From Candidatus Thorarchaeota archaeon (GTDB taxonomy: Archaea; Asgardarchaeota; Thorarchaeia; Thorarchaeales; Thorarchaeaceae): a DNA stretch of 64,000 nt. The notes beneath the pieces were generated by a model. The model saw nothing but the letters and a program-made list of their open reading frames with translations, was not told the origin of the DNA and made no database searches. The translations under genes were made by a program, and so were the position numbers. The stretch lies in contig SHMX01000001.1 of the NCBI GenBank assembly GCA_008080745.1, positions 159,359-223,358 of the forward strand. The letters run 5' to 3'. Below, piece by piece: positions 39,910 through 55,660 of this stretch. Every line of letters starts with the position of its first letter. The stretch's first letter is position 1.

Positions 39910-40656
39910 ATGACTCTGACTCTAAAACAAAAAGAGCGGTACTCGCGATTCCTTCGATTAAACGAGATACAAAAGGAGGATATGGAATCAATTGTACGCA
40001 CGACTGTTGGTGTTGTTGGGGCAGGAGGTCTGGGAAGTTCTTCCCTAAGACTACTCACTGCTATAGGTTTTGGAAGAATCATAATTGTTGATTCAGACGA
40101 AGTTGAATTATCTAATATTCAGAGACAGACACTCTATAATACAGAGGATGTGGGAAGACCCAAGGTAGAAGCCGCAGTAGAGAACCTGATGAAGCTAAAC
40201 CCAGAAGTGAAATTTGAACCGAAGAAAGTGAGGGTTAATGAGGATAATGTTGAGGATATACTTCGGGATACAGACATTATTATTGATGGACTCGATTCCT
40301 TCAAAACACGGAAAATAGTCAATAAATTCAGCTTGGAAAGCAAGAAACCCTACATTTTTGCGGGTGCTGTAGAATTTTATGCAAATACTACGACCTTTCA
40401 GCCCGATAGTACGGGTTGTTTCCATTGTATTATGGGGGATGCTAAAGATAATCCAGAAATGACATGTGCGTCTATTGGTATAACCCCGGAAATACTACCA
40501 ATGGTCACCAGCGTTCAGGTTCGAGAAGCGGTACTAATTGCAACAGATAGAAAACCCAACCTTGCCAATAGATTACTGTCTATTGATATTGGCACTCTTG
40601 TTTTTGAAATGTTTGATATAAAAAAGAATGAGGAATGCGAAGTCTGTGGAGTTTAA
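39910..40656 (+). CDS. ThiF/MoeB/UbaA-family E1-like adenylyltransferase
   Basis: ERYSRFLRL...VGVVGAGGLGSS nucleotide-binding motif, DSDEVELSNIQRQ, and C-terminal CFHC...CEVCG zinc pairs; start at the first ATG (ORF track uses GTG at 39895). Confidence 0.8.
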   Translation: MTLTLKQKERYSRFLRLNEIQKEDMESIVRTTVGVVGAGGLGSSSLRLLTAIGFGRIIIVDSDEVELSNIQRQTLYNTEDVGRPKVEAAVENLMKLNPEVKFEPKKVRVNEDNVEDILRDTDIIIDGLDSFKTRKIVNKFSLESKKPYIFAGAVEFYANTTTFQPDSTGCFHCIMGDAKDNPEMTCASIGITPEILPMVTSVQVREAVLIATDRKPNLANRLLSIDIGTLVFEMFDIKKNEECEVCGV

Positions 40657-41798
40657 GCTCCAAAGAACAGTCTTCGCGCTCTTCTCTTCCTCTCCTCATC
40701 ACTCTGATCATCTGGTGGTGGTGGAGGTGGAGGTGGTGTGGTCTTGTCCGCTTCGTCTTTGGACTCGACTTCTTCATCTTCTTCCTCGTCCTCACTGCCT
40801 TCTTCGGATTCATCCTCAGAATCGTCAGGAATAGATGGTTCATCATAGGGACTCCATACTCGCTTAGGATCAGTAGGAACTTCATCTTCAGAATCGGATG
40901 TTTTGGATTCGACTGATTCCTCTGAATCTGGAGCTATAGTTTCTTCATAGTCACTCCAAGTAAATTCAGGTCCCTCGGAAGGTTTTGAGGGGGATTCTGG
41001 TGAAGCGCTCTGTTCGAAGTCATCAGTTGGAGGTATACTTCGCTCTGGCATAGAAGTCCTTTCAAAACTGGATTCTGGAGTAATTTCCGTATCGGTTTCG
41101 GTTTCTTCGGATTTTTCAGGTATCGGTGGTAGTTCTGATTCAGAACGAAGAGATTCTACACCTAATGGACTGGGTTCAATCAGTTCAAAGTCATCTTCAA
41201 AATGTCGTGATGAGGAACTGAAGGAGTAATCATCTGATTCTTGCTTGTCGGATTTACCTAGAGATTCGACAGATAATGGTTCAATATCCTCACTCTCAGA
41301 TTCGATAGGAACTTCTGATTCAATAGGTTCAGTTGACTCAGTAGGAATTTCAAATTCGTCGGTTTCAGGAGATTCAGCTCTTTCAACTTTTTCACGAGTT
41401 ATAGACTCAGAATAACTAGTGGTATCAGATGAAGTTTCGTAAGAACCTCTCTCTGGTTCGTAAGCAGAACTTTCCGGGATTTCCGATCCACTTTCTGTGT
41501 GTTGATAATCCTCGGTTACTTCATCTCTTGCTGTTTCGGTCTTTTTGAATTCGACTCCCAATTTCCAGCTAAGACACTCTTCACATTTCTTTGCAGCCGC
41601 TATTAGTCCGTCCGCTATGAAATCTTCAAGCGATTTGGCTTGTTCAGGATTGCGTCGCGACCATCTCAGAAAGCTATCTACCATACGTAAAGCGTCACGA
41701 ACGCCTAACCAATACTTCTCGTCCTTCTCCGAGCTCAATGGTGACACCTGAAGATGGAGATATGTAATTATGACAAAAGCCTTTGCATTACATACCAA
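40653..41798 (-). CDS. hyper-acidic Ser/Glu/Pro-rich low-complexity protein with C-terminal Pro8 tract and basic tail
   Basis: about 100-aa structured N-terminus, then about 250 aa of SE(P)-rich repeats, ending ...TTPPPPPPPPDDQSDEERKRRARRLFFGA; the start may be an internal Met (MVDSFLRWS). Confidence 0.5.
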   Translation of the reverse strand: MVCNAKAFVIITYLHLQVSPLSSEKDEKYWLGVRDALRMVDSFLRWSRRNPEQAKSLEDFIADGLIAAAKKCEECLSWKLGVEFKKTETARDEVTEDYQHTESGSEIPESSAYEPERGSYETSSDTTSYSESITREKVERAESPETDEFEIPTESTEPIESEVPIESESEDIEPLSVESLGKSDKQESDDYSFSSSSRHFEDDFELIEPSPLGVESLRSESELPPIPEKSEETETDTEITPESSFERTSMPERSIPPTDDFEQSASPESPSKPSEGPEFTWSDYEETIAPDSEESVESKTSDSEDEVPTDPKRVWSPYDEPSIPDDSEDESEEGSEDEEEDEEVESKDEADKTTPPPPPPPPDDQSDEERKRRARRLFFGA

Positions 41799-42737: not shown

Positions 42738-43106
42738 TTGCAATATTTGAAAGCTTCCGAAAATCTGATTCAATTAGGAATCATTCTCCTGTTCATGGGT
42801 TTTGGCATATTACTACTGACAAGTCCAACTGAAGGACAGACTTTTTTCTTTGTGTTCCCATTCTTCTTTTTTGGAGAGCTGACGGGTATTGGCTTCGTGA
42901 TTAGTCTAGCAATTATAGGAATCATGATCTGGTACTTCGTTGCAGGATTCCCAAAATCGATCAGTAGACAGGGAAGATTGGAAAATGAGAGAATCTATCT
43001 TGAAGTTGAGGGGATATGTGATTATTGTGGGTCAGCAATACCAACAGGTGCATCTTTCTGCCAAGTCTGCGGCAGGTCAATAAGGAATGAAAGAGAAAGT
43101 TGGTAG
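42738..43106 (+). CDS. small membrane protein with C-terminal zinc-ribbon
   Basis: 122 aa; two hydrophobic helices then CDYCGSAIPTGASFCQVCG. Confidence 0.45.
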   Translation: MQYLKASENLIQLGIILLFMGFGILLLTSPTEGQTFFFVFPFFFFGELTGIGFVISLAIIGIMIWYFVAGFPKSISRQGRLENERIYLEVEGICDYCGSAIPTGASFCQVCGRSIRNERESW

Positions 43107-43127
43107 AATAGGTGGGAGGCACTCGGA

Positions 43128-43592
43128 TTGGGTAGAATCAGACCAATTAAGTCAACGGATGTCGAGAGCGTGGTAGGGATAGAAAGTCAATGCTTTCCTA
43201 CACCGTGGGACAGAAGCATCTTTGAAGCAATCTCGCAATGGAGAGGTAATATTCCACTGAAGCATAAACGGATAATTAGAATGCGTGTATTGGAATTCAA
43301 GGAACAGGTTGAGGGATACATTGTATGGGAGGAAGACAAGATAACTGAAAATGGGCATGTGATGAATTTGGCTGTTTCTAATGCTCATCGAGGTAAAGGA
43401 TGGGGAGAAAAACTCCTAAGATATGCAATTGAGTTAATGCGCGATCATGAAATGAAACTTTGTTTTTTAGAAGTCAGGGAGAACAATACGACTGCTCAGG
43501 CATTATACAAGAAAATTGGCATGGTCAAGAGCGATGTTAGGGTCGGTTACTATGAGAGTGAAGACGCTTACATCTATACTCTTGACCTTTAG
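43128..43592 (+). CDS. GNAT-family acetyltransferase (RimI-like)
   Basis: 154 aa; LAVSNAHRGKGWGEKLLRYAIE (motif A); TTG start with GGAGG 8 nt upstream. Confidence 0.65.
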   Translation: MGRIRPIKSTDVESVVGIESQCFPTPWDRSIFEAISQWRGNIPLKHKRIIRMRVLEFKEQVEGYIVWEEDKITENGHVMNLAVSNAHRGKGWGEKLLRYAIELMRDHEMKLCFLEVRENNTTAQALYKKIGMVKSDVRVGYYESEDAYIYTLDL

Positions 43593-43595
43593 GAA

Positions 43596-46500
43596 TTATT
43601 TCGTTGGACGAATTATTTGGGGACCAACTATATCATGGAAGAGCTCTAGATAGGAAGAATCACTAGATAGCAAACTAAAGGGCTCATCAGAGTCTGTACC
43701 TAAGAGTATAATTTTATTGTCAGCAACCGCCATTAATGGAACATCTTGGGAATAGATAATCCTCCAACCCGGCAGTTCTTCAATACTGGGTTCACCATCT
43801 TCGGGTAAGGGAATGATCAATATCTTTCTTCGAGGTTTGGAAATCTTGGAAATCTTCTTTAGGTCTAAATCACCAGGATTTGGACTTGCAATCACTATTG
43901 ATTCTTCAGCTTGATTAGCCAGAGCTAGTATCTGTGAATAAATTGCCTCTTTTCCTTTGATATACCAAGTCTTACCAGATTGTGATAGAATTTCTCGACT
44001 GGCTTTTTGGATAACCTCAAGACTCTCAATCGATTTCTCTGTTACTGATTTCACACTCTCGAATGATGAATCTAAATTCTTCTGAAAATCAGTGTATTGT
44101 TTCTCCAGCTTGGTCACCCACCTTCTGATTGATTTATCCATCTCGGTGCTCATAGCTGTCAATACTTCGGACCTAGTTTGTTTCAGTTCTGAAGTTGTTT
44201 CTGTCATGACTGTGTTAGTCGTGGCTGTCGTTTCATTAATCTCAATATTCTTTGTAGCCACGTCAGCACGGATAGATTCCATTAATTCATAGGATTTTGT
44301 ACTCACATCAGTTTTTAATTCAACACCAAGGGACTCAAATTTCCTCGAAGCTTGCTGATTGGCAACAAGAACATTTTGACGAGTTTTATCAAGTATGTCA
44401 TCACAATTGGATCGCAGTTTCTTAGCAGTTCTCTCAAGGAGAGTAGTTATTTCATCATGGGCTGATTCCAACGAGAGGGAATAATCATGAAGTGAAGTAT
44501 TCAGTTCCGAGTTAGCTTCGGAATGAACCGCAGCTACTCCCTTCTTTATCGATTTTGTAGCTTCTTCAACACCAACTTTTGCACTCTCTGGCATAGCATC
44601 AATGGACTCCTTAACTCGCTCTAGAGCTGTTGCAACCATTGATTCAAAGTCCGTAGCTTGTGAACGAAGCTTCGATTCAGTTTTATCAAATAGACCAATA
44701 CTCATAGCTTCTAGTTTTTCAATAGTTTCATCACCCTTCGATAGTATATTCTCGGTTGCCTGTTCAGAAGTTTTGGAAAGTTGTTGTTGGACCAAGGTAA
44801 GCTCATTATCCAATTTACTTCCGAGAGCGGTAAGCGATGACTCTACATTAGAAACTGCAGATTCAACCCAGACAGAGGCAGCGTCGAAGGCTAAAGCAAC
44901 TTCGTTCTTTCTGGTTTCTAAAGTCTTCATGATATCCTCCTTAGACTTGCTTCTTGCTTTCACAGCTTTTGATTCCGCTTCCGTGATTGAACTTTGATAG
45001 TTTTCAAGACGTTCAGAGGATACCCTCGCTCTTGCACTGTATAGTGCATCCAGTTTCTTACTAGTTTCAGCTAGTGTTCTCTGTTTGGCATCACTTTGAG
45101 ATGAAAGGAATGACTCTGCCTTTGTTTTGATAGCACCAGTTGATTTGGTAATGAAAGTCTTGGCATCATCACGTGCACCCCCAATCCTTTCAACCACAGT
45201 ATCCCTACCACTACTGATTGAAGCATTGAACTCTCGAGATACCTGAGTAAGATTTTCTCCAAGCTGCCGAATTGTGCCACTGCTCATCTCTCTTAATGAC
45301 TCAGCAGTTGTGATCATTGATTGTTCAAGATTATCTATAGCGGTGTTAACCATTGAGGTAATTGAAGTACGCTTCTCAGAGCTCACCGTCTGAAGTGTTT
45401 CTCGAATCTCCTCCGCATGTTCAGCTACTTCATCAACTCGACTCTGTAATTGTATTGTGTACTCCTCTTGTATTTTGAGTGAATCGGATTCTAGGGAGGA
45501 AATCTCTGTTCTAATAGCATTCTTAAATTCGGTATGAGCTGAACCAATAAGATCAGTTGCTTCCAAGGTCTGACTAGAAATTAAGGCATTGAAAGACGAC
45601 TCTGTGCTCTGGGTTAGAGTGATGAATTGACGAGTTATCTCTTCAAGTTTGACATGGAATTCCTCCTGGATCCCTTTCGCCATTCGCTCTATTCGTCCCG
45701 TCTGATCTTCAATGGTGGAATCAATTTCTTTTTGAATCCGAGTAGCATGGCTAGTTAAGGTTGACACACTCTGAGCGAGTCTTTCATTCAGAGTTGTCCC
45801 AAGTTCTTGGTAGAGTGTCTTCGTGACATCTACCTGTGTCTTTGTAGTAGTTGCAAAATCGTTTATGATATCTGTAAATGTACTCTCAAGAGAGGACTCA
45901 AACTCTGTAGACATAAGTTTTGCATCAGAAAGAATTGCTTCACTTTGACTTGCTGATTTAGATATAATGCTGTCAAATGCAGTCTTTAGTCGACTATTCA
46001 TATTAGTAACAAGAGAATTAAATTCTGACGATTCTGTATCAAGAACTTGAGAGATTTCATCTACAGCACCAGTTAGTTTCTTCTCAATTTCTTCTCCGGC
46101 AATTGAAGCCCAATCATCAATATCAGCATTGAGTGTTTCACCATCTTCCTGTATTCTAGCATCATCAGCTTCAAGTTGGCCTTGTAGTAGGGAGAGTATG
46201 GAATTCCGCACCTCGCTGACATGAACATCGAAATCTGAATTAATCGATTTTGCAAAAGATTTCAAGCGGGCAAATTCATCACTCAGAAATCCACTCGCCT
46301 TGTCAAAATAGGTATTCACCGAGGTTCGAATAACTTCATGATAAGAATCGTCAGTGTCAGACACCTGTTCAAGTTGAGCGGTGACAGACTGATTTGCAAC
46401 CTCCATAAATCCTGTCACTTCTTTCTTCCAAGCTGAAATGTCACTTAGGACTGAAATAGTAGCGTCAATTGCAGTCTGAATTTCATGCTGAACGTGTTCT

Positions 46501-47489
46501 GCTTGTTCACGAGGAATCTCTTTAGCACTTTCAAGCATGCCATCAAGAGACTCCTTCGCACCGAGGTAGGATTCACCTAGAGTACTATCAAACTCACTAA
46601 GACTGGTTTTCAAATCTGAGATGAGTTGGTTTAGCTGTTTTACGCTTTTCTTTGAGATATCTGTCGATTTTGCAAGTACTACCTTTACAATTTCTTTTGA
46701 TGCATCATCAAGAGCTCCCTCTGATTCTGATAGTGCTTCGTTTATTGATGACCTAATTTGCTCTACTAATTCAGCTATCTTGTTGCTTACACCATCTATC
46801 GAATCTGAAACGGAGGTGGTCTCATCATTAAGCCAATCATCGAATTCGGTGGCAATCTCATCGGTGGATTCGATTAATTGTTTTTGGCTGGCATCTAATG
46901 ACTTCTGCAATTCTGACAATAAAACTCCTAGGCGATTGTCCAATCCAGTATCGATTTCTGTAAGTACAGTTTCTAGCTGTTCAACCAAAGAATTGAGAAC
47001 ATTAGTTACAGTTCCAGATATCTCTTCAATCTGGTCACGAACAGTAGTAACCATCTCGTTTTCATATTCGTCTAAAGCATTGGTTACTTTGAGATCTCGT
47101 TCTTTATGAGACTCGAGTAAATTCTGGGCAAGTGAGCTTGTTGTTTTTTCTTGCTCACCAATGACATTTTCAGAAACCTCTTTGATTGAGGAAAATTCGT
47201 CAAGCATCTCTTGGAGAGATGATACCACCATCGTATCAAGGGGTACAGCCCGATAAACCGGAATTACACCCTCTAGCTCTACCACATAACCTTTCTCAAT
47301 CAATTTCTTCAGTGTTGATTTTACTTTTGAGGTCTTTTCACCAATTAATAGAGCTACTCCCTCAGCAGTAATATTACCACTCGCAAGTATGGGATAAAGC
47401 ACAGAAGCTTCAAGTTTGGTGAGACCAAGATTGGATTTCAATACAGGAACAGTTTCAGTCATCAAATTGCCACTCACTACTAATACCAC
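43596..47489 (-). CDS. giant (1297-aa) protein: N-terminal TrmB-like winged helix, about 1000-aa Ser/Thr/Glu-rich helical (coiled-coil-like) region, C-terminal globular domain
   Basis: N-terminus LTKLEASVLYPILASGNITAEGVALLIGEKTSKVKSTLKKLIEKGYV is helix-turn-helix-like; long helical low-complexity core; C-terminal about 130 aa (WYIKGKEAIYSQILALANQAEESIVIA...) is not low complexity. Confidence 0.6.
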   Translation of the reverse strand: MVLVVSGNLMTETVPVLKSNLGLTKLEASVLYPILASGNITAEGVALLIGEKTSKVKSTLKKLIEKGYVVELEGVIPVYRAVPLDTMVVSSLQEMLDEFSSIKEVSENVIGEQEKTTSSLAQNLLESHKERDLKVTNALDEYENEMVTTVRDQIEEISGTVTNVLNSLVEQLETVLTEIDTGLDNRLGVLLSELQKSLDASQKQLIESTDEIATEFDDWLNDETTSVSDSIDGVSNKIAELVEQIRSSINEALSESEGALDDASKEIVKVVLAKSTDISKKSVKQLNQLISDLKTSLSEFDSTLGESYLGAKESLDGMLESAKEIPREQAEHVQHEIQTAIDATISVLSDISAWKKEVTGFMEVANQSVTAQLEQVSDTDDSYHEVIRTSVNTYFDKASGFLSDEFARLKSFAKSINSDFDVHVSEVRNSILSLLQGQLEADDARIQEDGETLNADIDDWASIAGEEIEKKLTGAVDEISQVLDTESSEFNSLVTNMNSRLKTAFDSIISKSASQSEAILSDAKLMSTEFESSLESTFTDIINDFATTTKTQVDVTKTLYQELGTTLNERLAQSVSTLTSHATRIQKEIDSTIEDQTGRIERMAKGIQEEFHVKLEEITRQFITLTQSTESSFNALISSQTLEATDLIGSAHTEFKNAIRTEISSLESDSLKIQEEYTIQLQSRVDEVAEHAEEIRETLQTVSSEKRTSITSMVNTAIDNLEQSMITTAESLREMSSGTIRQLGENLTQVSREFNASISSGRDTVVERIGGARDDAKTFITKSTGAIKTKAESFLSSQSDAKQRTLAETSKKLDALYSARARVSSERLENYQSSITEAESKAVKARSKSKEDIMKTLETRKNEVALAFDAASVWVESAVSNVESSLTALGSKLDNELTLVQQQLSKTSEQATENILSKGDETIEKLEAMSIGLFDKTESKLRSQATDFESMVATALERVKESIDAMPESAKVGVEEATKSIKKGVAAVHSEANSELNTSLHDYSLSLESAHDEITTLLERTAKKLRSNCDDILDKTRQNVLVANQQASRKFESLGVELKTDVSTKSYELMESIRADVATKNIEINETTATTNTVMTETTSELKQTRSEVLTAMSTEMDKSIRRWVTKLEKQYTDFQKNLDSSFESVKSVTEKSIESLEVIQKASREILSQSGKTWYIKGKEAIYSQILALANQAEESIVIASPNPGDLDLKKISKISKPRRKILIIPLPEDGEPSIEELPGWRIIYSQDVPLMAVADNKIILLGTDSDEPFSLLSSDSSYLELFHDIVGPQIIRPTK

Positions 47490-47534
47490 CGGATAATTCT
47501 TGTAAATGCGTAAACGAGATACTGTTTTAATCAG

Positions 47535-48374
47535 TTATTCGGACCCAGAAACCATCGTGAATAAACGGTTGAGTTCTCCCACCTTTATTCTGGCTCCTTT
47601 CGAGTCGGTTACTAGCTCCACCTCAAGTTGAAACTCTCCATCATCAAGTATATGAATTTCTTCAAATTGATTCTCAAATTTGCTAGCAATTTCTTTGAGT
47701 TTCTTGGGAGGTAGTTTATCCGAACCTAGTTTAAGTATCCACCAATTGGTTGTCAGATCATTGAGAGCGTATTTCACATTATAATGCTCAGAAAAGACTT
47801 CTACATAGATCTTAAACATATTAAGTGTACTGATAATAAGATTCCGAGGATTAACAACAACTACCCCTCTTGAAAGGTCAAAATGAAATAGTAGGTCATC
47901 CCCCACTACTACTTTGACGTTAAAAACTCTTAGAACAGACATTTTCGTCCAGATTTTTTTAAATCGAGTAAGAAAATGCTTGATGGAACTCACACGGAGT
48001 GTGGAGAGAAGGTCCTTGATGGGAACACGCCGGTCATATAACGAGCGTCCTTTTCGCTCAAGAATGTACCGTTTAACCTGGTCCAAATACTGAGAATAAC
48101 AGAAGCTTGGAAGGTCTTGCGGTTCTACGCCAATCTCTATTAGTGCATTTAGAAAATTACGATTTTTGCATGATGGGCGTACTGTGCAGGCTAGTCTGTC
48201 TTCTTGGCATTCGGAACATTTTGTCTCATAGAGTTCAATAATCTCGCTTGCAAGACTGCCATCAGCGATATCATCCAATATCTCCAATCTGATAGCAAGA
48301 TCGTCCTTGTGCTTCTTTAGTTCCAAATGCGATTCCAGCTCCGTTGTATCATAACTTCGAGGAGAGGGGGCCAA
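47535..48374 (-). CDS. hypothetical protein with N-terminal Cys cluster
   Basis: 279 aa; CSECQEDRLACTVRPSC near the N-terminus; co-directional with and 45 nt upstream of the giant gene. Confidence 0.45.
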   Translation of the reverse strand: MAPSPRSYDTTELESHLELKKHKDDLAIRLEILDDIADGSLASEIIELYETKCSECQEDRLACTVRPSCKNRNFLNALIEIGVEPQDLPSFCYSQYLDQVKRYILERKGRSLYDRRVPIKDLLSTLRVSSIKHFLTRFKKIWTKMSVLRVFNVKVVVGDDLLFHFDLSRGVVVVNPRNLIISTLNMFKIYVEVFSEHYNVKYALNDLTTNWWILKLGSDKLPPKKLKEIASKFENQFEEIHILDDGEFQLEVELVTDSKGARIKVGELNRLFTMVSGSE

Positions 48375-48483
48375 GTAGCATATGGACTGCTTGGTCCGAA
48401 GTCTCTATGAAAACTAAAACGACGAGTTATTTTATACTTATCTTAAGGATACACAAATACATGGCTTGTAAGAGTGTTTCGGA

Positions 48484-49593
48484 TTAGCCACTATGCGCTT
48501 CTTTCAATTTCGGAATCCAAGATCGAAACTCTTTATTCAAACGAGCAATATCGTTCTCATTTAGAGTCGCTGTAGCAGGATAGGACTTTAGCTCACGTGC
48601 AACTTTACCAAACTGAAATAGAACGGGAGAATGTACCTTGATCATCTCCGTGAGGGTGTCACGAGCTTTTTCGAGTGCCTCTGCCATTTTTACAGCCTCT
48701 GTCTGAGGTTTAACCATATCCAATAGAGATTGCATAATTTCGTCCATTGTTCCCTCAGGTTCATAATCCACAGAAGGTTCTTCTTCTCCAGAATCTTCAG
48801 CTTTCTTCTGTTTTTTTGATTTCGTTTCTTTTTCTTCAGGTGCATAACCGGTATCTACGAATTTGCCAATAACAGCAAGAGCCTCATTAACCTCTTTGAG
48901 GGTCTTGTTATACTTTCGTTCAATATCATCAAGCTGACGAACGATTATTCCTACAATCTCCTTGGTTTCCCCAAAACTGTCAGACAAATCACTAATTCGT
49001 TCTTCAAGAGTGGAAAGACTTGCCACATAGGACTGGAGTTCATCAATTTTCTTGGAGATGACCTCTGTTTGAGACCCGGAAGTGTCACCTACCTCTTTTA
49101 CACTGGTACACAGACCAGCTACCGAATTGATGATGTCATCCATCTTTTTGCGAATTTCCTTCTCACCCTCATCAGAAGAGGCCTCTTTAAGTCGCTCATC
49201 AACATCTTTCATTGAGATAAGAACATCATCTATTTTCTTGATAATGACTTCACCCTCTTTCGCATCAGTCATAGTCTTAATTCCAGTATCTATGCTCATT
49301 ATAGTGTTGGCAATATCTTCCATCTTTTGTCCCAAAGTTTGAATATCCTTAGATTCCTGAACCTTTTTGAGACCTGTATCTACATTTCTAACAGATGAAA
49401 GTAATTCATCAATTTTTGTTACTGGACTTATCTCCTTTTTCACAGCGTCCAAGTCAGAATCGATAGCATCAACTTTCTTAGCCAAGCTTGGAATAATGCT
49501 TACCGCCTTCAGCACCTCTCTAATAGCTGCAAGCTCCTCTGATATTCTATCTACTTTCTTTTCCAATTTCCCGATTGATGCTTCGTCCGACAT
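48484..49593 (-). CDS. coiled-coil repeat protein
   Basis: 369 aa; recurring about 20-residue units (LAKKVDAIDSDLDAVKKEI, IKKIDDVLISMKDVDERLKE, RKKMDDIINSVAGL, SKKIDELQSYVASL). Confidence 0.5.
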   Translation of the reverse strand: MSDEASIGKLEKKVDRISEELAAIREVLKAVSIIPSLAKKVDAIDSDLDAVKKEISPVTKIDELLSSVRNVDTGLKKVQESKDIQTLGQKMEDIANTIMSIDTGIKTMTDAKEGEVIIKKIDDVLISMKDVDERLKEASSDEGEKEIRKKMDDIINSVAGLCTSVKEVGDTSGSQTEVISKKIDELQSYVASLSTLEERISDLSDSFGETKEIVGIIVRQLDDIERKYNKTLKEVNEALAVIGKFVDTGYAPEEKETKSKKQKKAEDSGEEEPSVDYEPEGTMDEIMQSLLDMVKPQTEAVKMAEALEKARDTLTEMIKVHSPVLFQFGKVARELKSYPATATLNENDIARLNKEFRSWIPKLKEAHSG

Positions 49594-49695
49594 AGAGATC
49601 CCTACTCCAAGACTATGAAATCATCTTGTCTTATTACAATATTTAGGCTTTTGGTAAAAATCATCCGCGTATTAAAATTCTGATGATAGTATTAT

Positions 49696-50529
49696 TTAAT
49701 CTGATTTCAGTTCCTTTGCACGTATTATTTCAATCCCTAAAGATTCAATCATTGGAATGATACGATCACGTTGGTCAGAAGTGGTACCTTTCCAGTCAAG
49801 TATTGCTTGATTTACAGATTCGTGGGTTCTATTAACCATCTGAGATACCAAATCTTGGTTGATTTCATCAAGTACGTATTTTGGAGCCATATGGCTTATG
49901 TGAATATTTTCTTCTAGGACAAGACGATTGAATTTCGAGGCATAATGATTTCCCCCAAATGCAATAGATGCCCCTTTATTCATGGATACAGTGAGACAGT
50001 CGATAGCAGCAGCCGCTACTGCTTTAGCACCTTCAGGATGCTCCCAATATTCTTCATCAGAGCCAAGTTCAACAAATAACAGAGGTGTTTTCATACTGGT
50101 TGGACCATGATGAGTAACCTCAAGTGAAACATCAAATTCCGAAAGGTTACGATGATTTCGTTCTGAAAATAACCGTTTGTAAGCGGTTGAAACCAATGAT
50201 GCTGTAGATATTGAGAGCTCGTAGGGCTGTCCACCGAATGAGTCATCGGAGAGATAATTGCCAGTGCTATGCACCAGTAGAGCTGGTTTTGCTGATTTTG
50301 ACCTATGACGTGAGCAAAATATGAACACTTCTGCATCAAAATGCTCATCCAAATGGTCACACCGAATCAAATCACGTTCACTAGTGATAAGAATGGAATC
50401 TGGTTCGTGTGTATAGATTTCATTCCCTTCAAAAATTTCGCCATTTGAATGGAAACCATATTCATCGATTAGGACTTGCTTGATATTTTGACTAGCTGGA
50501 TCTTTTACTGAGGTTACTATTACCCTCAA
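49696..50529 (-). CDS. dtdA: D-aminoacyl-tRNA deacylase, archaeal type (DtdA/DTD2-like)
   Basis: 277 aa; FIFCSRHRS, VTHHGP, FVELGSDEEYW and FGGNHYA segments match the pattern I recall for the DTD2 family; recalled from memory, not searched. Confidence 0.55.
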   Translation of the reverse strand: MRVIVTSVKDPASQNIKQVLIDEYGFHSNGEIFEGNEIYTHEPDSILITSERDLIRCDHLDEHFDAEVFIFCSRHRSKSAKPALLVHSTGNYLSDDSFGGQPYELSISTASLVSTAYKRLFSERNHRNLSEFDVSLEVTHHGPTSMKTPLLFVELGSDEEYWEHPEGAKAVAAAAIDCLTVSMNKGASIAFGGNHYASKFNRLVLEENIHISHMAPKYVLDEINQDLVSQMVNRTHESVNQAILDWKGTTSDQRDRIIPMIESLGIEIIRAKELKSD

Positions 50530-51851
50530 ACTGCCTCACCTGATACAGGCTCGATACTACATTTCTGAAGAAGCGGTTCGAGGGTCTCACCATATTCAAT
50601 TGAAACCTTAGCACTAAAGGATTTTAGAAGTTCTTTCTCAATCCGAGATTTGTAATCTTTCATCTTTTCTAATTCACGTTCGATATCATCTTTCACGCGT
50701 AGCAAATCATTCTGATGATACTCTAGGTTCTTTCGAGCCTCCTCCACTTCAACCTTCAGTTTTGCATCTTTAGAGTAAACATCGGAGTCGGCAAATTCTT
50801 TTCGTTTGCGTTCTATTTCCTTTGCTTGTTCCTGAAGTTCAAAGAGTTCACCCTTCTTGATAGATTCAGCTTCTTCAATAGCACGCCTACCTAATCTGTC
50901 TTTCAGTGGAAATGCATCGGTCTCAACAGCTTGCTTCAATGCTTCAAGTCCTTCGATGAGACCTGGTTGTCCATCTGGCTCTTCTATTATTGCTTGGTAA
51001 GGATCTTCAAAATAGTCTAGTAATGCCTTTGATCCTGCTGGACTAACTCTAACCCCGTGATCGTGCTGAAGGAACTTTTTAACTGGTTTCTTAAGGGTGT
51101 TTAATTTCATTCGTAATAAGGTAGCAATACGATCGGCTTCGTCATCAAGATTTAGCAGGTCTCCAACATTGGACTTTTCAACAAAATCACTGTATTTCTT
51201 TTTAGCAGCCATATACTCTCCACGAGCATGGTCAATCTTCAAACGAACTTGTCTAATTTGCTCCTCGAATACGTCTCGACTGTATGTCATGTCGCGCAGA
51301 GTGTTAATCCTGGCATCTATTCGTTCCAAATCCTTAACCCAACTGTATTCGTATAGAAGTTTGCCAAGTATTTTCATATCGCGTGATAGGTCTTTCATTA
51401 GATTGTCCAATACTTTAATGGTGCTCTTGTGTTTCTTATCCATACGTTTAATCCATCGAGCACCTGCACCCCAAAGATCATTGATGAATTGTTGAATCTC
51501 CGCTTGCATATCCTCAGTACTTTCATAAGTAATATCTTGGTCAACCTCAAAACCATCCACTAACTCACGTAATTTCAGACCAAATCTAGTTGCAGTGCCT
51601 TCGCTATCCTCCTCGGTAGCCTCCTTCAGCAAATCTTTGGATAATTCTTCAATATCTTTCAGAGTTCGACCTACAGATTTGTAGCTCTTTTCTGCATTTT
51701 TTCGAAAGTCCTTAGACTTTTTCTTTAACTGTTTCCTATACCATTTAGACAAGGAGTCGATATCAAGTTGCGTCATAAGAAATGAACACCCATCAAACGG
51801 AAATTCTTCAAGCACTTTATCAACTTTACGAAGCATGTAGAATTGTTCCAT
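50526..51851 (-). CDS. coiled-coil protein, unknown function
   Basis: 441 aa, highly charged helical sequence; 4-nt overlap with dtdA. Confidence 0.5.
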   Translation of the reverse strand: MEQFYMLRKVDKVLEEFPFDGCSFLMTQLDIDSLSKWYRKQLKKKSKDFRKNAEKSYKSVGRTLKDIEELSKDLLKEATEEDSEGTATRFGLKLRELVDGFEVDQDITYESTEDMQAEIQQFINDLWGAGARWIKRMDKKHKSTIKVLDNLMKDLSRDMKILGKLLYEYSWVKDLERIDARINTLRDMTYSRDVFEEQIRQVRLKIDHARGEYMAAKKKYSDFVEKSNVGDLLNLDDEADRIATLLRMKLNTLKKPVKKFLQHDHGVRVSPAGSKALLDYFEDPYQAIIEEPDGQPGLIEGLEALKQAVETDAFPLKDRLGRRAIEEAESIKKGELFELQEQAKEIERKRKEFADSDVYSKDAKLKVEVEEARKNLEYHQNDLLRVKDDIERELEKMKDYKSRIEKELLKSFSAKVSIEYGETLEPLLQKCSIEPVSGEAV

Positions 51852-52113
51852 TAGTCGATATCCGTAGTCTTATATCAATCACAGAGTACTCGTACACAAC
51901 AAACAAACAGTGATTATCATGTCTGAGCTCTTAGATACGGGAAACCAATATCCAAGGCTCGATATAGAATATGCTGTCGAATGTGCCTCATGAGGAAAAG
52001 GTCGCAAAGGCTTCTATTTCAAACGCCTAAGTCTGATAGACGAGTCCAATGAGAATTGTCTACTACTTAGAAATCCTGCGGACTACAAAGCAGGTTTCTG
52101 GGTATCATACATA

Positions 52114-52719
52114 ATGAATGGTGAAATCCAAGTGTGTGGTTCAACTGATAGTGAAAGATTGAATCTCATCAGTCAAGAATATGATAAAGAACGGTATCAC
52201 TTCACATTGGAGAATACCCCGCTGTTTAAGGAATCACCAGTTCTGAAATTTGACATTGATGTGTGGAGTTACAACGAACCCTTCATGCTTATTCGTCATG
52301 TTACACGAAATGTTGGCGAAGAACAAATAGAGGATTTGAAAATCTACAACATCATGGACTTTGACATTGGAGGCCCCATAAGTTACAAAGATGATATGGG
52401 ACTCTATAATACCGATACAGGGGTCATTATGGTATACGATCTAAGCTCACTTACCGTAGCAATGACTGGTATACCACAACCAAATGGTTGGGACTTGGAC
52501 AAACCCACTAGTTTCAAACTAGAAGCAGACCGCGACCTTAGAGGAACCACAAAATTAGGACCACAAGATATTGCTACGGGATTGCAATGGGATCTCGGAA
52601 ATCTTGATCCTTGCGACTCGAAAAAATTAGAAATTGTTCTTGTTGCAGCCAAATGCCCTAATGAGGTAAATTCGCTCATAGAACGAGCCAAGAATATGTT
52701 CGATAAGAAGATGCAATGA
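52114..52719 (+). CDS. hypothetical protein
   Basis: 201-aa ORF, likely beta-rich; no motif recognised. Confidence 0.4.
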   Translation: MNGEIQVCGSTDSERLNLISQEYDKERYHFTLENTPLFKESPVLKFDIDVWSYNEPFMLIRHVTRNVGEEQIEDLKIYNIMDFDIGGPISYKDDMGLYNTDTGVIMVYDLSSLTVAMTGIPQPNGWDLDKPTSFKLEADRDLRGTTKLGPQDIATGLQWDLGNLDPCDSKKLEIVLVAAKCPNEVNSLIERAKNMFDKKMQ

Positions 52720-52878
52720 TGTAGCTGTGTAAAGCTAAGCAGCAGCTAAGGAGCAACGGGAAGCCCCCAATATCTTCTTCCGAACATCTTCCCATATGGA
52801 TAAATATCATTCCGAAATTGTATGAATTCTTCTATTTATTGGATAATAAAAAAAGGCTTGAAGGGACCTCAGCCCCTT

Positions 52879-53133
52879 CTATTCTTTCTGTTCTTCCAAA
52901 TACGACACCAATAGCATTGCTGGCGGGGTCAATTTGGAGGGCTCACCCTTGTTTTCAGAGTTTCCACCGGTGACAAGACCAAGATTCATCAAGGCACGAA
53001 GATTCCATTTTGCAGTAGAATAAGGAACCTTTGTTTTACAAGATAGAATATCTGCTAACCCGGTGATTGTTAGAACACGTGTTCTAAGAATTTCAGCACT
53101 AGCTACTAAGATGGTCTTTTGAGTGTCAGACAT
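52879..53133 (-). CDS. small winged-helix transcriptional regulator (ArsR/MarR-like)
   Basis: ITGLADILSCKTKVPYSTAKWNLRALMNLGLV helix-turn-helix pattern; start placed at internal MSDTQK because the upstream 48 codons of the ORF look non-coding. Confidence 0.4.
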   Translation of the reverse strand: MSDTQKTILVASAEILRTRVLTITGLADILSCKTKVPYSTAKWNLRALMNLGLVTGGNSENKGEPSKLTPPAMLLVSYLEEQKE

Positions 53134-53404
53134 TTTTTCTATTGCCAGACGGAAAAAAGCCTCAGCTAGACAATCAAAGGATATTTGAGATTCAGAACAA
53201 GTATTATTCGAGTAGACCTTCTGGCTACTGGAGAACACACTCACCTGGTAAGCGGATTTCGCACTCACCTGATGCATTCGTGACCCGATATCGATGGGCT
53301 TCTGAGTTGGTTTCGGTACCCATTGCGTTTTTCACCTCATTTTTCATTTGGGTCTAATCATGAAATAGGAAAGTGGACACTTAAGCATTACTAGTAATGC
53401 AGGT

Positions 53405-53899
53405 TTAGAGCATCTCTTCAGGTATCTCAAGTCCTAGAGTCCCCAACTTTGCAAATCCTTGTGAAAAGAGACTCATTTGATGACGTATCTCTTCCTCAGT
53501 ATCAATGATTCCCCGGAGATAATGTATTGCCTCCTCCAGACCCTCTGTCTTGTATTCTTCCATCATACGACCAAATTGATCGCTCATACCAAGCATGCTA
53601 TCCTGAATTAGCTGAGTAAGATCAATCATTGAGCGAACTGTGTTTCTGGCCTCATCTCCTGGCATGTATGGGAGGAAATCCTCTAAGGCTACTGCAGCGC
53701 CCTGGCACATATCTACTCGACCGGGGATAAGTTCGTCTTGCATCTTATGCATCCAGCCAAGAATTTCTCTGCTGGTTAGAGAACGAAGATTTTCCAAGTT
53801 GAAATATCCAGTCCAAGGACCGAATTCCTCAGCTTCATAGGATATCCAATCCTCGAAAGCGGTCAATACCCGTGCCCATCCTTCTGCGGTTTCAGACAT
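53405..53899 (-). CDS. hypothetical protein (helical)
   Basis: 164-aa ORF, no motif recognised. Confidence 0.4.
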   Translation of the reverse strand: MSETAEGWARVLTAFEDWISYEAEEFGPWTGYFNLENLRSLTSREILGWMHKMQDELIPGRVDMCQGAAVALEDFLPYMPGDEARNTVRSMIDLTQLIQDSMLGMSDQFGRMMEEYKTEGLEEAIHYLRGIIDTEEEIRHQMSLFSQGFAKLGTLGLEIPEEML

Positions 53900-53968
53900 A
53901 TATATCCCATTTTTGTGTCTGCATCCGAGGATATAAAGTAAAGCCCCAATAAAAATGAGTGATGAATT

Positions 53969-54631
53969 ATGAGTAAAAAGGAGTGGTTACTAGAGATATT
54001 GGAGAAAACAAAAAACGATACACAATTTGACGATCCACCAAAGTATATCATAGAGATATGCAATGAAATTGGTCTAAGAGGGTTAACGGATAATAGTATC
54101 GAATTATCACGGGAGCAGCGCATGGATGTAGCTAGATACACAGTGGCACAAGGAGTGCAAATAGAAACTGTAGTTGAAGGACTTACCTGGAAAGATTTTG
54201 AGGGGTTTATTGCATCCATCCTAGTAGAGAACACATACAAGTGTACGGAGAGCCTTCGCAGGATAGGTAATGAAACAGCAAAAGGAATGGAGATTGATGT
54301 TGTAGGAGTTAAGGGACGAACCATTCTGTCAATCGATGCAAAGATGTGGGGAATGAGAACAGGGAAGGCATCCGCTTTGAGAAAAGCTGCTGAAAAGCAA
54401 TTAGAAAGATCGTGTGAATTAGCCTCACAGTTATCTCTTATTCACAACCGAATACAAACACTACCTAGGGGACAATACACCATATTTCCCGTACTCACAA
54501 CATGGCTTGTGGAAGATATAATGATTCATCAAGGAGTTCCTATTGTCCCAATATTTCAAATCAACTCTTTCATATTGAACTTTGAAAATTATCAACATCT
54601 GATTCAATCATTTCAAGGAGAATTAAAATAA
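53969..54631 (+). CDS. PD-(D/E)xK nuclease-fold protein (Mrr-like restriction endonuclease catalytic domain)
   Basis: LTWKDFEGFIASIL...GMEIDVVGVKGRTILSIDAKMW follows the FE...(D/E)xD...K pattern of Mrr/Hjc-type nucleases. Confidence 0.45.
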   Translation: MSKKEWLLEILEKTKNDTQFDDPPKYIIEICNEIGLRGLTDNSIELSREQRMDVARYTVAQGVQIETVVEGLTWKDFEGFIASILVENTYKCTESLRRIGNETAKGMEIDVVGVKGRTILSIDAKMWGMRTGKASALRKAAEKQLERSCELASQLSLIHNRIQTLPRGQYTIFPVLTTWLVEDIMIHQGVPIVPIFQINSFILNFENYQHLIQSFQGELK

Positions 54632-54664
54632 AATTGAGGAGGAATTCCTCCTCATACTGTAGAA

Positions 54665-55660
54665 TTAATCAAAATCTTTAATCTCACCAGTTACGGTATC
54701 AATCATTCCTAGCCGGATGACCTCGATCTTGCTCTCATCGTAAGCAGGATATGTAGAGAGATTTTTCTTAATTGCTTCTGCTAATGAAAGAAGTCTCTTT
54801 TCAGGTGATTCAGGAGGTTCATCTTCAAAGCTCGATGCCTCTTGATTCAGAGTTTCAATAACTGGACGTAAATAGGTTCCATGAACATCTGACGGATTCA
54901 GAGATGCCTTGCCAGCACCACAGTGTTGTCCTTCTTCCTCAATCTTACCGTGTGGAATGAAAACAATATATTTCTTTGAACCTCCTGTCGCTTGCCAAGT
55001 TTCTAAGAATGCATTAAATTGGGCAGTTTCATCATCATCACCAGTATAGGCGGGAACATGACCACCTAAGGTTTGGATTGCATATGGTAATCCAGCATAT
55101 GTTAGCGGTGGGTGGACTCTTGAATCAGAACACACCAATATCATTACATCATCATTGACTGTAGTAGGTATTGTTGTTGCTCGTGATATAAGATGTTGTT
55201 CCACGGCCTGATTTCTATGGTATGAATGAGAGTGTGGAGAAACCTCTCCACTATTGTAGTTTATCTTGAGAGCTACAATAGGAATACCCTTAGTATCAGG
55301 ATTCTCAGAGACATTCTTCAATGATGCTTCAATTACGGCATCATCTTCGTCGTGTTCAAAGGTTATCACGATTCCATTCTTCTCGGGAAAGTGCTCATTA
55401 TATGCAGCCGGACCACTGAAAAAGATAGGCGTCTTATCACTCTCAGGTATTGATCGACCAGGCACTCGTGTACCTGAAAAAGCGTCACCCTGTTTGAGAT
55501 CAAAGAGCTGAAGGTCCTGGGCACCTCTCTTAATCGATGAGATTAGAAGAAAGCGTGGCTGTTGACCATTTGCTGCAATGTTCATTTTTTCTCGCAAAAT
55601 TGGATTGTTTTTACGTTCAACCCTAGTTGCTTTTGATATCTCGATAAGTTCGTTTATCAT
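54665..55660 (-). CDS. internally duplicated protein with beta-carbonic-anhydrase-like CSDSR motif in the second repeat (tentative)
   Basis: 331 aa; second half has ILVCSDSRVHP and IVFIPHGK...QHCG; first half has the degenerate equivalents LLISSIKRG and IVITFEHDED; spacing of the His/Cys pair deviates from canonical HxxCG. Confidence 0.3.
   Translation of the reverse strand: MINELIEISKATRVERKNNPILREKMNIAANGQQPRFLLISSIKRGAQDLQLFDLKQGDAFSGTRVPGRSIPESDKTPIFFSGPAAYNEHFPEKNGIVITFEHDEDDAVIEASLKNVSENPDTKGIPIVALKINYNSGEVSPHSHSYHRNQAVEQHLISRATTIPTTVNDDVMILVCSDSRVHPPLTYAGLPYAIQTLGGHVPAYTGDDDETAQFNAFLETWQATGGSKKYIVFIPHGKIEEEGQHCGAGKASLNPSDVHGTYLRPVIETLNQEASSFEDEPPESPEKRLLSLAEAIKKNLSTYPAYDESKIEVIRLGMIDTVTGEIKDFD

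Follow-up and report, generated by a model that had tools for sequence, protein, structure and literature searches.

Five adjacent minus-strand genes in a Thorarchaeota genome appear to fall into three units, and we favour, with moderate confidence, a reading in which the last unit encodes a DNA-anchored rod of fixed length (gene E) and a metal-binding partner (gene D). In the window, the whole 64,000-nt stretch of DNA that was analysed, the genes follow one another as gene A (50526..51851, 441-aa ORF), gene B (49696..50529, 277 aa), gene C (48484..49593, 369 aa), gene D (47535..48374, 279-aa ORF) and gene E (43596..47489, 1,297-aa ORF). The start of gene B overlaps the stop of gene A by 4 nt, and the remaining spacers measure 102, 109 and 45 nt. 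The one-strand layout and the spacers that an earlier note on this DNA had described were thus confirmed; a run of five same-strand genes is by itself nothing unusual. The ORF of gene A is probably over-long, with a start at M26 (51776) that gives about 416 aa. Gene D probably starts at codon 17, a TTG at 48326, to give 263 aa, and the start of gene E probably lies inside its ORF, at 47477-47462. Gene B is identified by its profile matches (PF04414, E-value 4.9e-62; NCBIfam NF003072, E-value 3e-71) as the D-aminoacyl-tRNA deacylase DtdA and is, as had been claimed, the sole recognisable enzyme among the five.

A lack of synteny in related genomes had been named beforehand as an argument against a common function of these genes. 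We found the order A, DtdA, C, D, E retained in 69 Thorarchaeia species. However, the entire 20-kb neighbourhood, which includes genes for the proteasome alpha subunit, RimK, ThiF and an aminotransferase, was equally collinear on both strands across Thorarchaeia, and for this reason the synteny of A to E is uninformative on function. The median gap in Thorarchaeia was 16 nt from A to DtdA (63 loci), 121 nt from DtdA to C, 182 nt from C to D and 55 nt from D to E. A BRE/TATA-like, promoter-like motif, AAAGTTGATAAA (51816..51827, minus strand), lies about 50 nt upstream of the likely start of A, within its over-long annotated ORF, and was detected with at most one mismatch at -55 to -46 from the start in 44 of 60 Thorarchaeia loci. 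Another promoter-like motif (consensus GAAAGGCTAAATAC; AAAAGCCTAAATAT in the window, 49639..49652, minus strand) is located about 59 nt before the ATG of C and was present with at most two mismatches at -70 to -56 in 42 of 49 loci. Across the Thorarchaeia loci the motif of A was absent upstream of C and D, and that of C was absent upstream of A and D. In the window a TATA-like box precedes D and none was found before E. The short D-E spacer contains a Shine-Dalgarno-like GGTGGTAT (47483..47490, minus strand), and GGTGGGAT was found with at most one mismatch at -15 to -11 from the start of E in 30 of 63 Thorarchaeia loci, which is consistent with translation of E from a D-E transcript. We infer the co-transcription of D and E from their spacing alone, and an internal promoter may lie inside the Thorarchaeia D-E gap of about 55 nt. 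Taken together, the spacing and the promoter-like motifs before A and C indicate three separate units, A with DtdA, C alone and D with E, which would lie side by side in Thorarchaeia only.

A and DtdA are translationally coupled. Relatives of A were found only at the level of identity seen within Thorarchaeia, and the gene is Thorarchaeia-specific, strongly conserved and outside the D-E unit. Its product had been described as a coiled coil, a description that did not hold: periodicity analysis detected no sustained heptad or hendecad periodicity, and the AlphaFold2 model (pLDDT 84) showed helical bundles, so that A is predicted to be a helical-bundle protein. Gene C, which by its upstream motif seems to be transcribed from its own promoter, encodes a protein in which about seven units of 30 residues each (residues 7-250) are followed by an acidic linker and a helical C-terminal domain of 85 aa. 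The repeat reported earlier for this protein was recovered, but its period is about 30 residues rather than the proposed 20 or so: autocorrelation gave z 5.1 at lag 30 and z 4.6 at lag 60, and of 120 homologues, which range from 282 to 378 aa in length, 52 scored highest at lag 30. Heptad-like segments were found at residues 15-70 and 141-250, and a match to NPV_P10 was marginal (30.9 bits versus a cut-off of 29.8).

D was followed by E in all 63 Thorarchaeia loci in which the contig permits the comparison, and a D homologue was followed by an E-like protein in eight of 10 informative contexts outside Thorarchaeia. The genes flanking these eight pairs were unrelated to one another. The gap between D and its partner was 14 nt in Helarchaeota (L071/L072), 4 nt in a Njord-like genome (L073), 13 nt in L075, 15 nt in L076, 18 nt in Ranarchaeia (L077), 7 nt in L081 and 5 nt in Baldrarchaeia (L123), so seven of the eight pairs fall within 4-18 nt; the gap was 92 nt in L079, where the partner is cut by the contig end. 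The non-Thorarchaeia partners combine TrmB or related HTH heads with Apolipoprotein-type repeats. A TrmB winged helix heads those in L071, L076, L077, L079 and L123 and was weaker in L073, L075 and L081, and in all six partners tested the hydrophobic power at a period of 11/3 (3.5 to 32.3) exceeded that at 3.5. No E-like gene was detected beside D in the flanks examined of L074 and of Sifarchaeia L078, and the D-E partnership is therefore not universal; neither is the fixed length of 1,300 aa, since the partner in L075 has only 722 aa. When flanks of up to 10 kb on each side were screened at L071-L078 (eight loci in seven contexts), no HMM match to the A or C family was obtained at E-values up to 10. 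Of the four non-enzymatic families whose co-occurrence across archaea the earlier note had suggested analysing, D and E recurred together, and A and C were missing from the flanks screened; outside Thorarchaeia, D and E appear to be the only two of the five genes that remain together. We found no published description of the D-E pair.

The Cys cluster previously noticed in D (48099..48218, minus strand) is real: C53-x2-C56-x6-C63-x5-C69 and C92 were all invariant in 46 Thorarchaeia homologues. In 56 remote homologues of 17-38% identity C56, P67, R72 and C92 were invariant and C53 and C69 were kept in at least 90%; C63 was present in 90% or more of the sequences in a mixed 32-sequence alignment. 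The protein consists of a helical N-domain, which bears the cluster, followed by an alpha/beta C-domain. Its structural model was confident overall but dropped to a pLDDT below 50 over residues 64-71, which is what an unliganded site would show in such a model, and the cluster is probably a metal or Fe-S site. Four close invariant Cys in a helical N-domain recall the Cys4 Fe-S or Zn modules of helical proteins that bind nucleic acids, beyond which D has a fifth Cys and the invariant Arg and Pro. The Cys spacing is C-xn-C-x2-C-x5-C in WhiB and C-x6-C-x2-C-x5-C in the Endonuclease III loop, and the C-x2-C-x6-C-x5-C of D differs from both. D had no sequence-family match, and neither its sequence nor its fold matched any solved structure. 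As judged from its homologues, D appears to be an Asgard-wide orphan protein and a conserved partner of E.

E begins with a TrmB-type winged-helix domain at residues 17-84 (47238..47441, minus strand), which matched PF01978 with an E-value of 5.3e-9 (36.2 bits versus a cut-off of 25.6) in the whole protein and of 3.7e-11 in the isolated segment. This domain had been missed by the earlier note. The head is followed by a hendecad rod of about 1,020 residues (residues about 120-1140; 44070..47132, minus strand). The rod sequence repeats at lag 11 (z 8.9), and hydrophobic power was 14.75 at 11/3 versus 0.21 at 3.5; the phase stayed coherent over the length of the rod, shifting only near residues 335 and 865. 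The giant protein thus does look like a long structural rod, as had been proposed, but it is not a heptad coiled coil, because the period is exactly 11/3. In 50 of 52 species E is 1,293-1,301 aa long at a rod identity of 33%, every alignment column had at most 10% gaps (50 species), and there are few conserved Pro over about 1,000 residues. Fully extended, the rod would be roughly 150 nm long. E carries a net charge of -84, a value that speaks against binding of DNA or of anionic membranes by the rod itself. The best-conserved stretch of E is the rod midpoint (residues about 600-680, including H603, H612, G635 and H652; 45450..45692, minus strand), with a smoothed conservation of 0.73-0.76 versus 0.60-0.67 for the winged helix, and we regard it as a candidate partner-binding site or fold-back apex. 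The conservation profile was roughly mirror-symmetric about residue 624, a symmetry that was not significant after correcting for the centre scan. The C-terminal alpha/beta domain (residues about 1150-1297; 43599..44042, minus strand) is conserved in Thorarchaeia and was recognisable by alignment in the Helarchaeota, Njord-like, Ranarchaeia and other partners. It gave a sub-threshold match to PF11495, the TrmB C-terminal regulator domain (E-value 0.0067, 16.1 bits versus 22.2), and its profile had no sequence match in the PDB. Domain searches detected neither an ATPase head nor any other NTPase domain in E.

In the reading that we favour, E would be a TrmB-family derivative whose winged-helix head binds DNA and in which the short dimerisation helix usual in TrmB has been swapped for about 1,020 uninterrupted hendecad residues of fixed length and register. 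D and E would share one transcript, and D, a Cys5 protein that probably holds Zn or Fe-S, would most likely bind E at a fixed stoichiometry. By dimerising through its rod, E could form a fixed-length spacer or tether anchored on DNA; an extended, parallel rod would span about 150 nm, a folded-back one about 75 nm. D might then be an adaptor, or a switch that responds to redox state or metal, positioned at one rod end or at the conserved midpoint. RacA of Bacillus subtilis combines a DNA-binding helix-turn-helix head, a coiled coil and a terminal anchoring domain in less than 200 aa. With the same head-rod-end architecture it offers the closest functional analogy for a tether from DNA to something else, although E is unrelated to it in sequence, about seven times longer, hendecad, archaeal and paired with D. 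Like SMC and Rad50, with their very long, length-conserved, DNA-associated helical arms, E has a conserved midpoint, placed like their hinge or zinc hook; unlike them it has no ATPase head and no CxxC hook, and its two register shifts, at about 335 and 865, do not mirror each other.

The likeness to TrmB, TrmBL1 and TrmBL2, which also carry an N-terminal PF01978 winged helix, a helical region and a C-terminal alpha/beta domain, invites a plainer reading. This family comprises sequence-specific regulators and the chromatin protein TrmBL2 (PMC4158304, PMC4877046, PMC11840125), the latter indicating that a structural chromatin role is possible within it (PMC4877046, PMC11840125). E could be an ordinary TrmB-type transcription factor with D as a redox- or metal-sensing co-regulator and the rod used only for oligomerisation, which we consider unlikely. 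The above-threshold winged helix and the weak match to the C-terminal TrmB effector domain fit such a role, a thiol or Fe-S sensor would suit the Cys cluster of D, a thiol-based TrmB regulator being on record (PMC9426492), and an operator could lie in the inverted repeats found upstream of D, although their enrichment was mild. However, it is not obvious why a regulator would need a 1,020-residue helix whose length, in 50 of 52 species, varies by no more than 8 residues and is held without indels at 33% identity, and conservation of E peaks at the rod midpoint, not at the DNA-binding head. E departs from the TrmB family in this linker, grown to about 1,020 hendecad residues of fixed length, in the sub-threshold PF11495 match of its C-terminal domain and in its conserved Cys-cluster partner gene, and no sugar-binding domain was shown for it. 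Quite improbable is the proposal of the earlier note that A, C, D and E form one co-transcribed structural or filament-forming module in which DtdA is a passenger. The five genes do share a strand and are separated by short spacers, their order is kept in 63-69 Thorarchaeia species, C and E are both long helical repeat proteins, and C marginally matches the filament-forming baculovirus P10. Against this, the 20-kb block is conserved equally, including unrelated housekeeping genes on both strands, and so does not speak for a module, the promoter-like motifs before A and C and the gaps of 121-182 nt split the run, and only D and E persist elsewhere, A and C being missing beside them in the seven other lineages screened. 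The Thorarchaeia-level identity of all relatives of A, and its helical bundle without coiled-coil periodicity, also tell against it.

The 11-residue amphipathic periodicity of E is shared with apolipoproteins (PF01442), apolipophorin III and LEA-type proteins; PF01442 matched nine stretches of E with 107 bits, above its gathering threshold of 90, and weak ApoLp-III and phasin matches occurred in E or its partners. A role of E as an apolipoprotein-, perilipin- or LEA-like 11-mer coat of membranes or lipids, or as a stress protectant, with an incidental winged helix, nevertheless seems highly improbable. Proline punctuation of the rod is almost nil, with none of the proline-punctuated 22-mers of those proteins, and its coherent phase implies a continuous helix, unlike helix-turn-helix bundles. 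The helix is strongly acidic (net charge -84), a lipid coat would not need a fixed length, the DNA-binding head and the C-terminal domain are kept across lineages, and there are no signs of secretion or of a lipid context. What E shares with these proteins is periodicity, not descent. We give hardly any credence to the view that the adjacency of D and E is a passive remnant of two functionally unlinked genes. Two D subgroups do have no E neighbour, but at least eight independent contexts, whose other neighbouring genes are unrelated, contain the pair at a D identity of about 20-25%, the two genes lie 4-18 nt apart in seven of eight contexts, and retention by chance across such divergence is very unlikely.

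PADLOC ZorA profiles also matched E (E-value 2.5e-16), over the long helical tail region of the profiles only; unlike ZorA of the Zorya anti-phage system, E lacks a MotA/ExbB membrane domain and is not accompanied by ZorB-D. D and E differ from defence islands in their housekeeping-gene surroundings and their vertical conservation.

Five consecutive genes occupy the minus strand of the window, which belongs to a Thorarchaeota metagenome-assembled genome, from 51851 to 43596: A (51851-50526, 441 aa), the gene of a DtdA-like enzyme (B, 50529-49696, 277 aa), C (49593-48484, 369 aa), D, which encodes a Cys-cluster protein (48374-47535, 279 aa), and E, which encodes a giant protein (47489-43596, 1,297 aa). 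The spacers between them are -4, 102, 109 and 45 nt, and the next genes upstream (52114-52719) and downstream (a GNAT gene, 43128-43592) lie on the plus strand. The presence of a DtdA-like enzyme in the cluster, recognised in the earlier note, was confirmed by a full-length match to PF04414 (209.5 bits, E 4.9e-62) and by a match to NCBIfam NF003072/PRK03995 (E 3e-71; 240 bits, below the equivalog cut-off of 272). Neither A nor D has a family in Pfam or NCBIfam. The D protein was 100% identical to the NCBI entry BAJATHORv1_10192, and the gene order was the same on a matching Logan contig of 120 kb. Alignments and upstream motifs indicate that the true genes are shorter than the ORFs: A probably starts at M26 (51776), E at 47477-47462, and D at codon 17 (TTG 48326), in agreement with the NCBI annotation. 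A scan of 43000-52800 found no Rfam matches or tRNAs in or around the cluster. The DNA tandem repeats of this interval were just short two-copy matches (scores 31-47), so the repeats of the proteins are ancient and diverged.

The earlier note had proposed that A, C, D and E form one structural or filament-forming module around dtdA, and had held that loss of synteny in related genomes would count against it. A scan with a D profile, restricted to one genome per species, gave 69 loci, nearly all of them labelled Thorarchaeota, and the order A-DtdA-C-D-E was kept wherever the contig permitted (A in 63 loci, DtdA in 65, C in 67, D in 69 and E in 63). The expected synteny was thus found. In the same loci, almost all other genes of a neighbourhood of about 20 kb occurred equally often in the same place and orientation, among them, on either strand, genes of a proteasome alpha subunit, RimK, ThiF, DUF362, an aminotransferase and several family-less proteins. 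Since unrelated genes are equally collinear, synteny within Thorarchaeia does not discriminate between a module and a neighbourhood. The collinear block, which corresponds to 37786-58810 of the window and includes radical SAM and GNAT genes, runs over both strands and is kept in most of the 69 Thorarchaeia species at 32-75% protein identity.

Spacing and upstream motifs divided the cluster. The median gaps in Thorarchaeia were 16 nt for A-DtdA, 121 nt for DtdA-C, 182 nt for C-D and 55 nt for D-E. A BRE/TATA-like AAAGTTGATAAA (51816-51827 in the window) was found about 50 nt 5' of the start of A and was conserved in 44 of 60 loci, while a second such element, GAAAGGCTAAATAC (49639-49652 in the window), lay about 60 nt 5' of C in 42 of 49; each was absent 5' of the other genes in the Thorarchaeia loci. 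As AAAGTTGATAAA falls inside the over-long ORF of A, a spurious N-terminal extension of A seems 'conserved' when translated. An SD-like GGTGGGAT preceded E in 30 of 63 loci. The gaps, together with the motifs ahead of A, C and E, argue for three units, A+DtdA, C and D+E, rather than one. The observation in the earlier note was confirmed in part, as a run of five minus-strand genes including a protein with invariant cysteines, and its interpretation was supported in part. The run did not stand as one unit: the short spacers and lack of internal promoters of a single operon were not found across A-E, and cotranscription was compatible with the data for A-DtdA and D-E only. An inverted repeat, GGAC-N6-GTCC, is located at 48384-48397, about 60-70 nt 5' of the likely start of D. 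Short palindromes also occur 5' of D in many Thorarchaeia loci, for instance GAGATGGAC-N2-GTCCATCTC in locus L023, and perfect stems of at least 7 bp were detected there in 12 of 68 loci, compared with 3 of 68 after shuffling. Such palindromes may serve as an operator that the TrmB-type head of E would recognise, or may form a hairpin in the 5'-UTR.

The decisive evidence came from outside Thorarchaeia. A D profile run against 1.84 billion representative proteins returned 87 clusters, of which about 75 were remote (~17-38% identical, 270-350 aa); the named members belonged to Helarchaeota, Njordarchaeia, Ranarchaeia, Sifarchaeia, Odinarchaeota, Hodarchaeota and Baldrarchaeia. A degenerate Cys-motif pattern search of metagenomes for further D loci outside Thorarchaeia gave no match. 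The genomic context was read for eleven remote representatives. In eight contexts the gene directly downstream of D lay on the same strand and encoded a large protein that began with a TrmB or related HTH head and carried Apolipoprotein-type repeats. These E-like partners measured 1,313 aa in Helarchaeota (L071/L072, 14 nt from D), 1,228 aa in a Njord-like locus (L073, 4 nt), 1,304 aa in Ranarchaeia (L077, 18 nt) and 1,238 aa in Baldrarchaeia (L123, 5 nt); the others had 722 aa (L075, 13 nt), 1,307 aa (L076, 15 nt), 1,219 aa (L081, 7 nt) and, at a contig end, at least 603 aa (L079, 92 nt). All six partners tested had more hydrophobic power at the hendecad period of 11/3 than at the heptad period of 3.5 (3.5 to 32.3). 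D stood alone in two subgroups, L074 and L078 of Sifarchaeia, and in L080 the contig ended directly after D; other large proteins near solo D or near pairs (L074, L077, L080) were not hendecad. HMMs of A and C gave zero matches at E values up to 10 in loci L071-L078. Because D+E recurs here without A or C, it is D+E that forms the conserved module, and A+DtdA and C are its neighbours in Thorarchaeia only. Within the reading that we prefer, D+E is very probably a real module. The pair is now known from Thor-, Hel-, Njord-, Ran- and Baldrarchaeia, and D alone also from Sif-, Odin- and Hodarchaeia. Full-text literature searches found no description of it, and this gene pair of several Asgard classes, embedded in a collinear block in Thorarchaeia, is apparently undescribed.

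Several genes near the remote loci were recorded. The Helarchaeota pair (L071 18041-20888; L072 13343-16168) sits upstream of Cdc6/Orc1 and MCM genes at a distance of about 3 kb, and a replication origin may be close by. A DUF4139 protein is encoded just 5' of D in two unrelated contexts, clearly in L079 (5083-6471) and weakly in L076 (8743-9759), and may represent a third associated gene in some lineages. A KaiC/RadA-like ATPase gene (PF06745, E 1e-56) is found directly 5' of D+E on the same strand at L081 208-1005. On the contig of the solo D of L074 (1-4809) there is a tubulin-family gene (PF00091), flanked by the genes of a helical protein of more than 788 aa, which is not hendecad, and of a family-less 351-aa protein.

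E consists of a winged-helix head, a rod and a C-terminal domain. Residues 17-84 matched the TrmB winged helix PF01978 (36.2 bits, cut-off 25.6, E 5.3e-9; E 3.7e-11 for the isolated segment). The rod showed a sequence periodicity at lag 11 (z 8.9) and a hydrophobic power of 14.75 at exactly 11/3, compared with 0.21 at 3.5; it is thus built of hendecads and is no heptad coiled coil. The hendecad phase was coherent from about residue 120 to 1140 and shifted twice, by about +100 degrees near residue 335 and by about +45 degrees near 865; conserved prolines in the rod were very rare and the net charge was -84. When 50 Thorarchaeia orthologues were aligned, none of the ~1,290 positions had more than 10% gaps, and 50 of 52 species had a length of 1,293-1,301 aa. 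Compared with E of the window, the head was 43% identical, the rod 33% and the C-terminal domain 36%, the last of these comprising 130-150 residues and being recognisable across lineages. A helix of about 1,000 residues that accepts substitutions but not indels implies that the length and register of the rod matter. The arms of SMC and Rad50, like ruler proteins, behave in this way. The rod of E resembles SMC/Rad50 in having a length conserved almost to the residue; it differs in having no SMC/Rad50-type ABC ATPase head, as no NTPase family was matched in Pfam or NCBIfam.

In the D protein, the five cysteines of C53-x2-C56-x6-C63-x5-C69 and C92 were all invariant in 46 Thorarchaeia homologues. 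In the remote set C56, P67, R72 and C92 were invariant and C53 and C69 nearly so, and C63 was nearly invariant in a mixed alignment. D gave no Pfam, NCBIfam or PDB sequence match, including profile searches, the fold search was also empty, and there was no recurrent Pfam match among 56 remote members. The AlphaFold2 model (pLDDT 80.6, pTM 0.76) predicted a helical N-domain, which holds the Cys cluster, and after it an alpha/beta C-domain; confidence was low precisely at residues 64-71. Neither the spacing nor the fold was that of a known Fe-S/Zn Cys4 family, and the spacing fits no classical motif known to us. Since the cysteines are invariant, D would be expected to bind a metal or an Fe-S cluster.

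From the observed pairing, domain content, periodicity, length constraint and unit boundaries we lean, with modest confidence, towards E as a DNA-anchored tether of fixed length with D as its partner. The winged-helix head of E would bind DNA, E would oligomerise through its rod and serve as a fixed-length spacer, and D would be co-expressed with E and bind it, either as an adaptor or as a switch that responds to redox state or to metal. Within this combined reading, we regard a structural tether rather than an ordinary regulator as an even bet. That E is simply a regulator with D as its sensor partner seems unlikely. E can be classed with the TrmB family on the basis of its head, the pair itself appearing undescribed; the C-terminus matched the TrmB effector domain PF11495 below the cut-off (16.1 bits, cut-off 22.2, E 0.0067) and over profile positions 3-91 of 233 only, a profile of this domain found no match and no TrmB structure in the PDB, and the near-constant rod length speaks for a spacer. 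It is very improbable that E is a lipid- or stress-binding repeat protein, the reading suggested by nine stretches that match PF01442 Apolipoprotein (107 bits, gathering threshold 90): the 11-mer period of apolipoproteins is present, but in place of proline-punctuated tandem 22/11-mers E has sparse prolines, a continuous phase and a winged-helix head.

Two further readings concern the genes rather than the proteins. Collinearity across the whole class, as seen in Thorarchaeia, can give unrelated neighbours the look of an operon or a module. That the adjacency of D and E is itself passive is extremely improbable, as the eight contexts outside Thorarchaeia share the pair and have otherwise unrelated flanking genes. 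The single module of A, C, D and E, in favour of which stand the shared strand and the conserved order, is improbable, since only D+E stays together outside Thorarchaeia. A reading of E as part of a defence system was rejected, because PADLOC gave only matches to the tail of ZorA and other coiled-coil matches. The rod of E resembled only the tail part of the ZorA (Zorya) profiles, and neither ZorB or effector neighbours nor a MotA/ExbB membrane domain appeared in the gene lists of the window, L071-L081 and L123.

Returning to the tether, conservation along E raised the question whether the rod folds back. No stretch of E is more conserved than residues 600-680 at the midpoint of the rod (H603, H612, G635, H652). 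Per-column entropy was mirror-symmetric about residue 624, the geometric midpoint being about 630, with correlations of 0.70-0.85 raw and 0.50-0.64 detrended, and 624 was the best centre under every filter; when any centre was allowed the symmetry was not significant against phase-randomised surrogates (p 0.11-0.25). Anti-diagonal covariation peaked at the same centre (620-624, z ~4), is confounded by column entropy and phylogeny, and was equalled by a translation control. The register shifts were not mirror images. A folded-back rod is a lead and not a finding.

A more far-reaching version of the tether is doubtful; in it, D+E would be a DNA-anchored molecular ruler, so far undescribed and present throughout the Asgard archaea. 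E could in that case be a rigid spacer about 150 nm long, or else an arm folded like that of SMC/Rad50 but lacking an ATPase. The midpoint of the folded arm (600-680) would be an apex or docking site, and the fold would bring the winged-helix head close to the C-terminal domain; D would work as a switch based on a metal or an Fe-S cluster. If true, the ruler could place chromosomal DNA with respect to the envelope, the cytoskeleton or a second DNA segment, or form a bridge to them, and would amount to a simple nucleoskeleton-like element in the archaea most closely related to eukaryotes. Interest in Asgard archaea comes from what they may reveal about the origin of eukaryotic cell organisation, and to our knowledge most of their lineage-specific proteins are uncharacterised. 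D+E unites a recognisable DNA-binding head with a rod of near-residue-constant length, and a DNA-anchored spacer or bridge would, if true, be a new kind of archaeal chromosome-organising element. The rod length could be engineered, which would open the tether idea to direct test.

The neighbours A and C were characterised separately. A, which had been described as a coiled coil, showed about 60% identity within the class and many invariant motifs, and had no sustained periodicity; only residues 113-168 were marginally above the shuffled 99th percentile at the heptad period. The AlphaFold2 model (pLDDT 84, pTM 0.55) predicted helical bundles, and its fold matches were generic four-helix bundles only. 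Judged by periodicity and model, A does not qualify as a conventional coiled-coil protein. Weak matches to VPS28 (PDB 2j9w at E 0.08; the Pfam family in 11 of 51 members), BAR (8 of 51) and DUF2935 (28 of 51) were all rejected as generic helical-bundle noise, since the fold search had no specific result and a single invariant His rules out a hemerythrin-like metal site. A metagenome scan recovered relatives of 50-63% identity only, which at this Thorarchaeia level of identity are taken to be orthologues, and none more distant. A is restricted to Thorarchaeia, is conserved as strongly as the DtdA enzyme and is always coupled to it, with an overlap of 4 nt in the window (50526-50529) and a median gap of 16 nt in 63 loci, which hints at a link with aminoacyl-tRNA proofreading.

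For C, a repeat of about 20 residues had been claimed; the actual unit is about 30. Its autocorrelation peaked at lags 7 (z 5.4), 30 (z 5.1) and 60 (z 4.6), lag 30 was the best in 52 of 120 homologues, and in rows of 30 the unit S-x-k-x-v-D...kk-I-D-d-i-l was seen about seven times. Heptad periodicity was partial (segments 15-70 and 141-250). Matches in Pfam and NCBIfam were weak and of coiled-coil type; that to baculovirus P10 (PF05531, 30.9 bits, cut-off 29.8) covered residues 6-66 only and, because this region is heptad-like, probably reflects coiled-coil composition, not homology.

Other family-less genes were noted in the window. Five consecutive genes without a Pfam family (201, 132, 164, 220 and 331 aa, on mixed strands) occupy 52114-55660, in a position kept across Thorarchaeia. 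Tandem paralogues of 330 and 325 aa, also lacking a Pfam family, are encoded on the plus strand at 34141-35133 and 35199-36176 and share the N-terminal motif GCPC[YF]K-x-FG...CVN-DD. Finally, the body of a 381-aa protein without a Pfam family (40653-41798) is low-complexity sequence, very acidic and rich in Ser, Glu and Pro; nine consecutive prolines stand near the C-terminus of this protein, and its position is kept in 43 Thorarchaeia loci.
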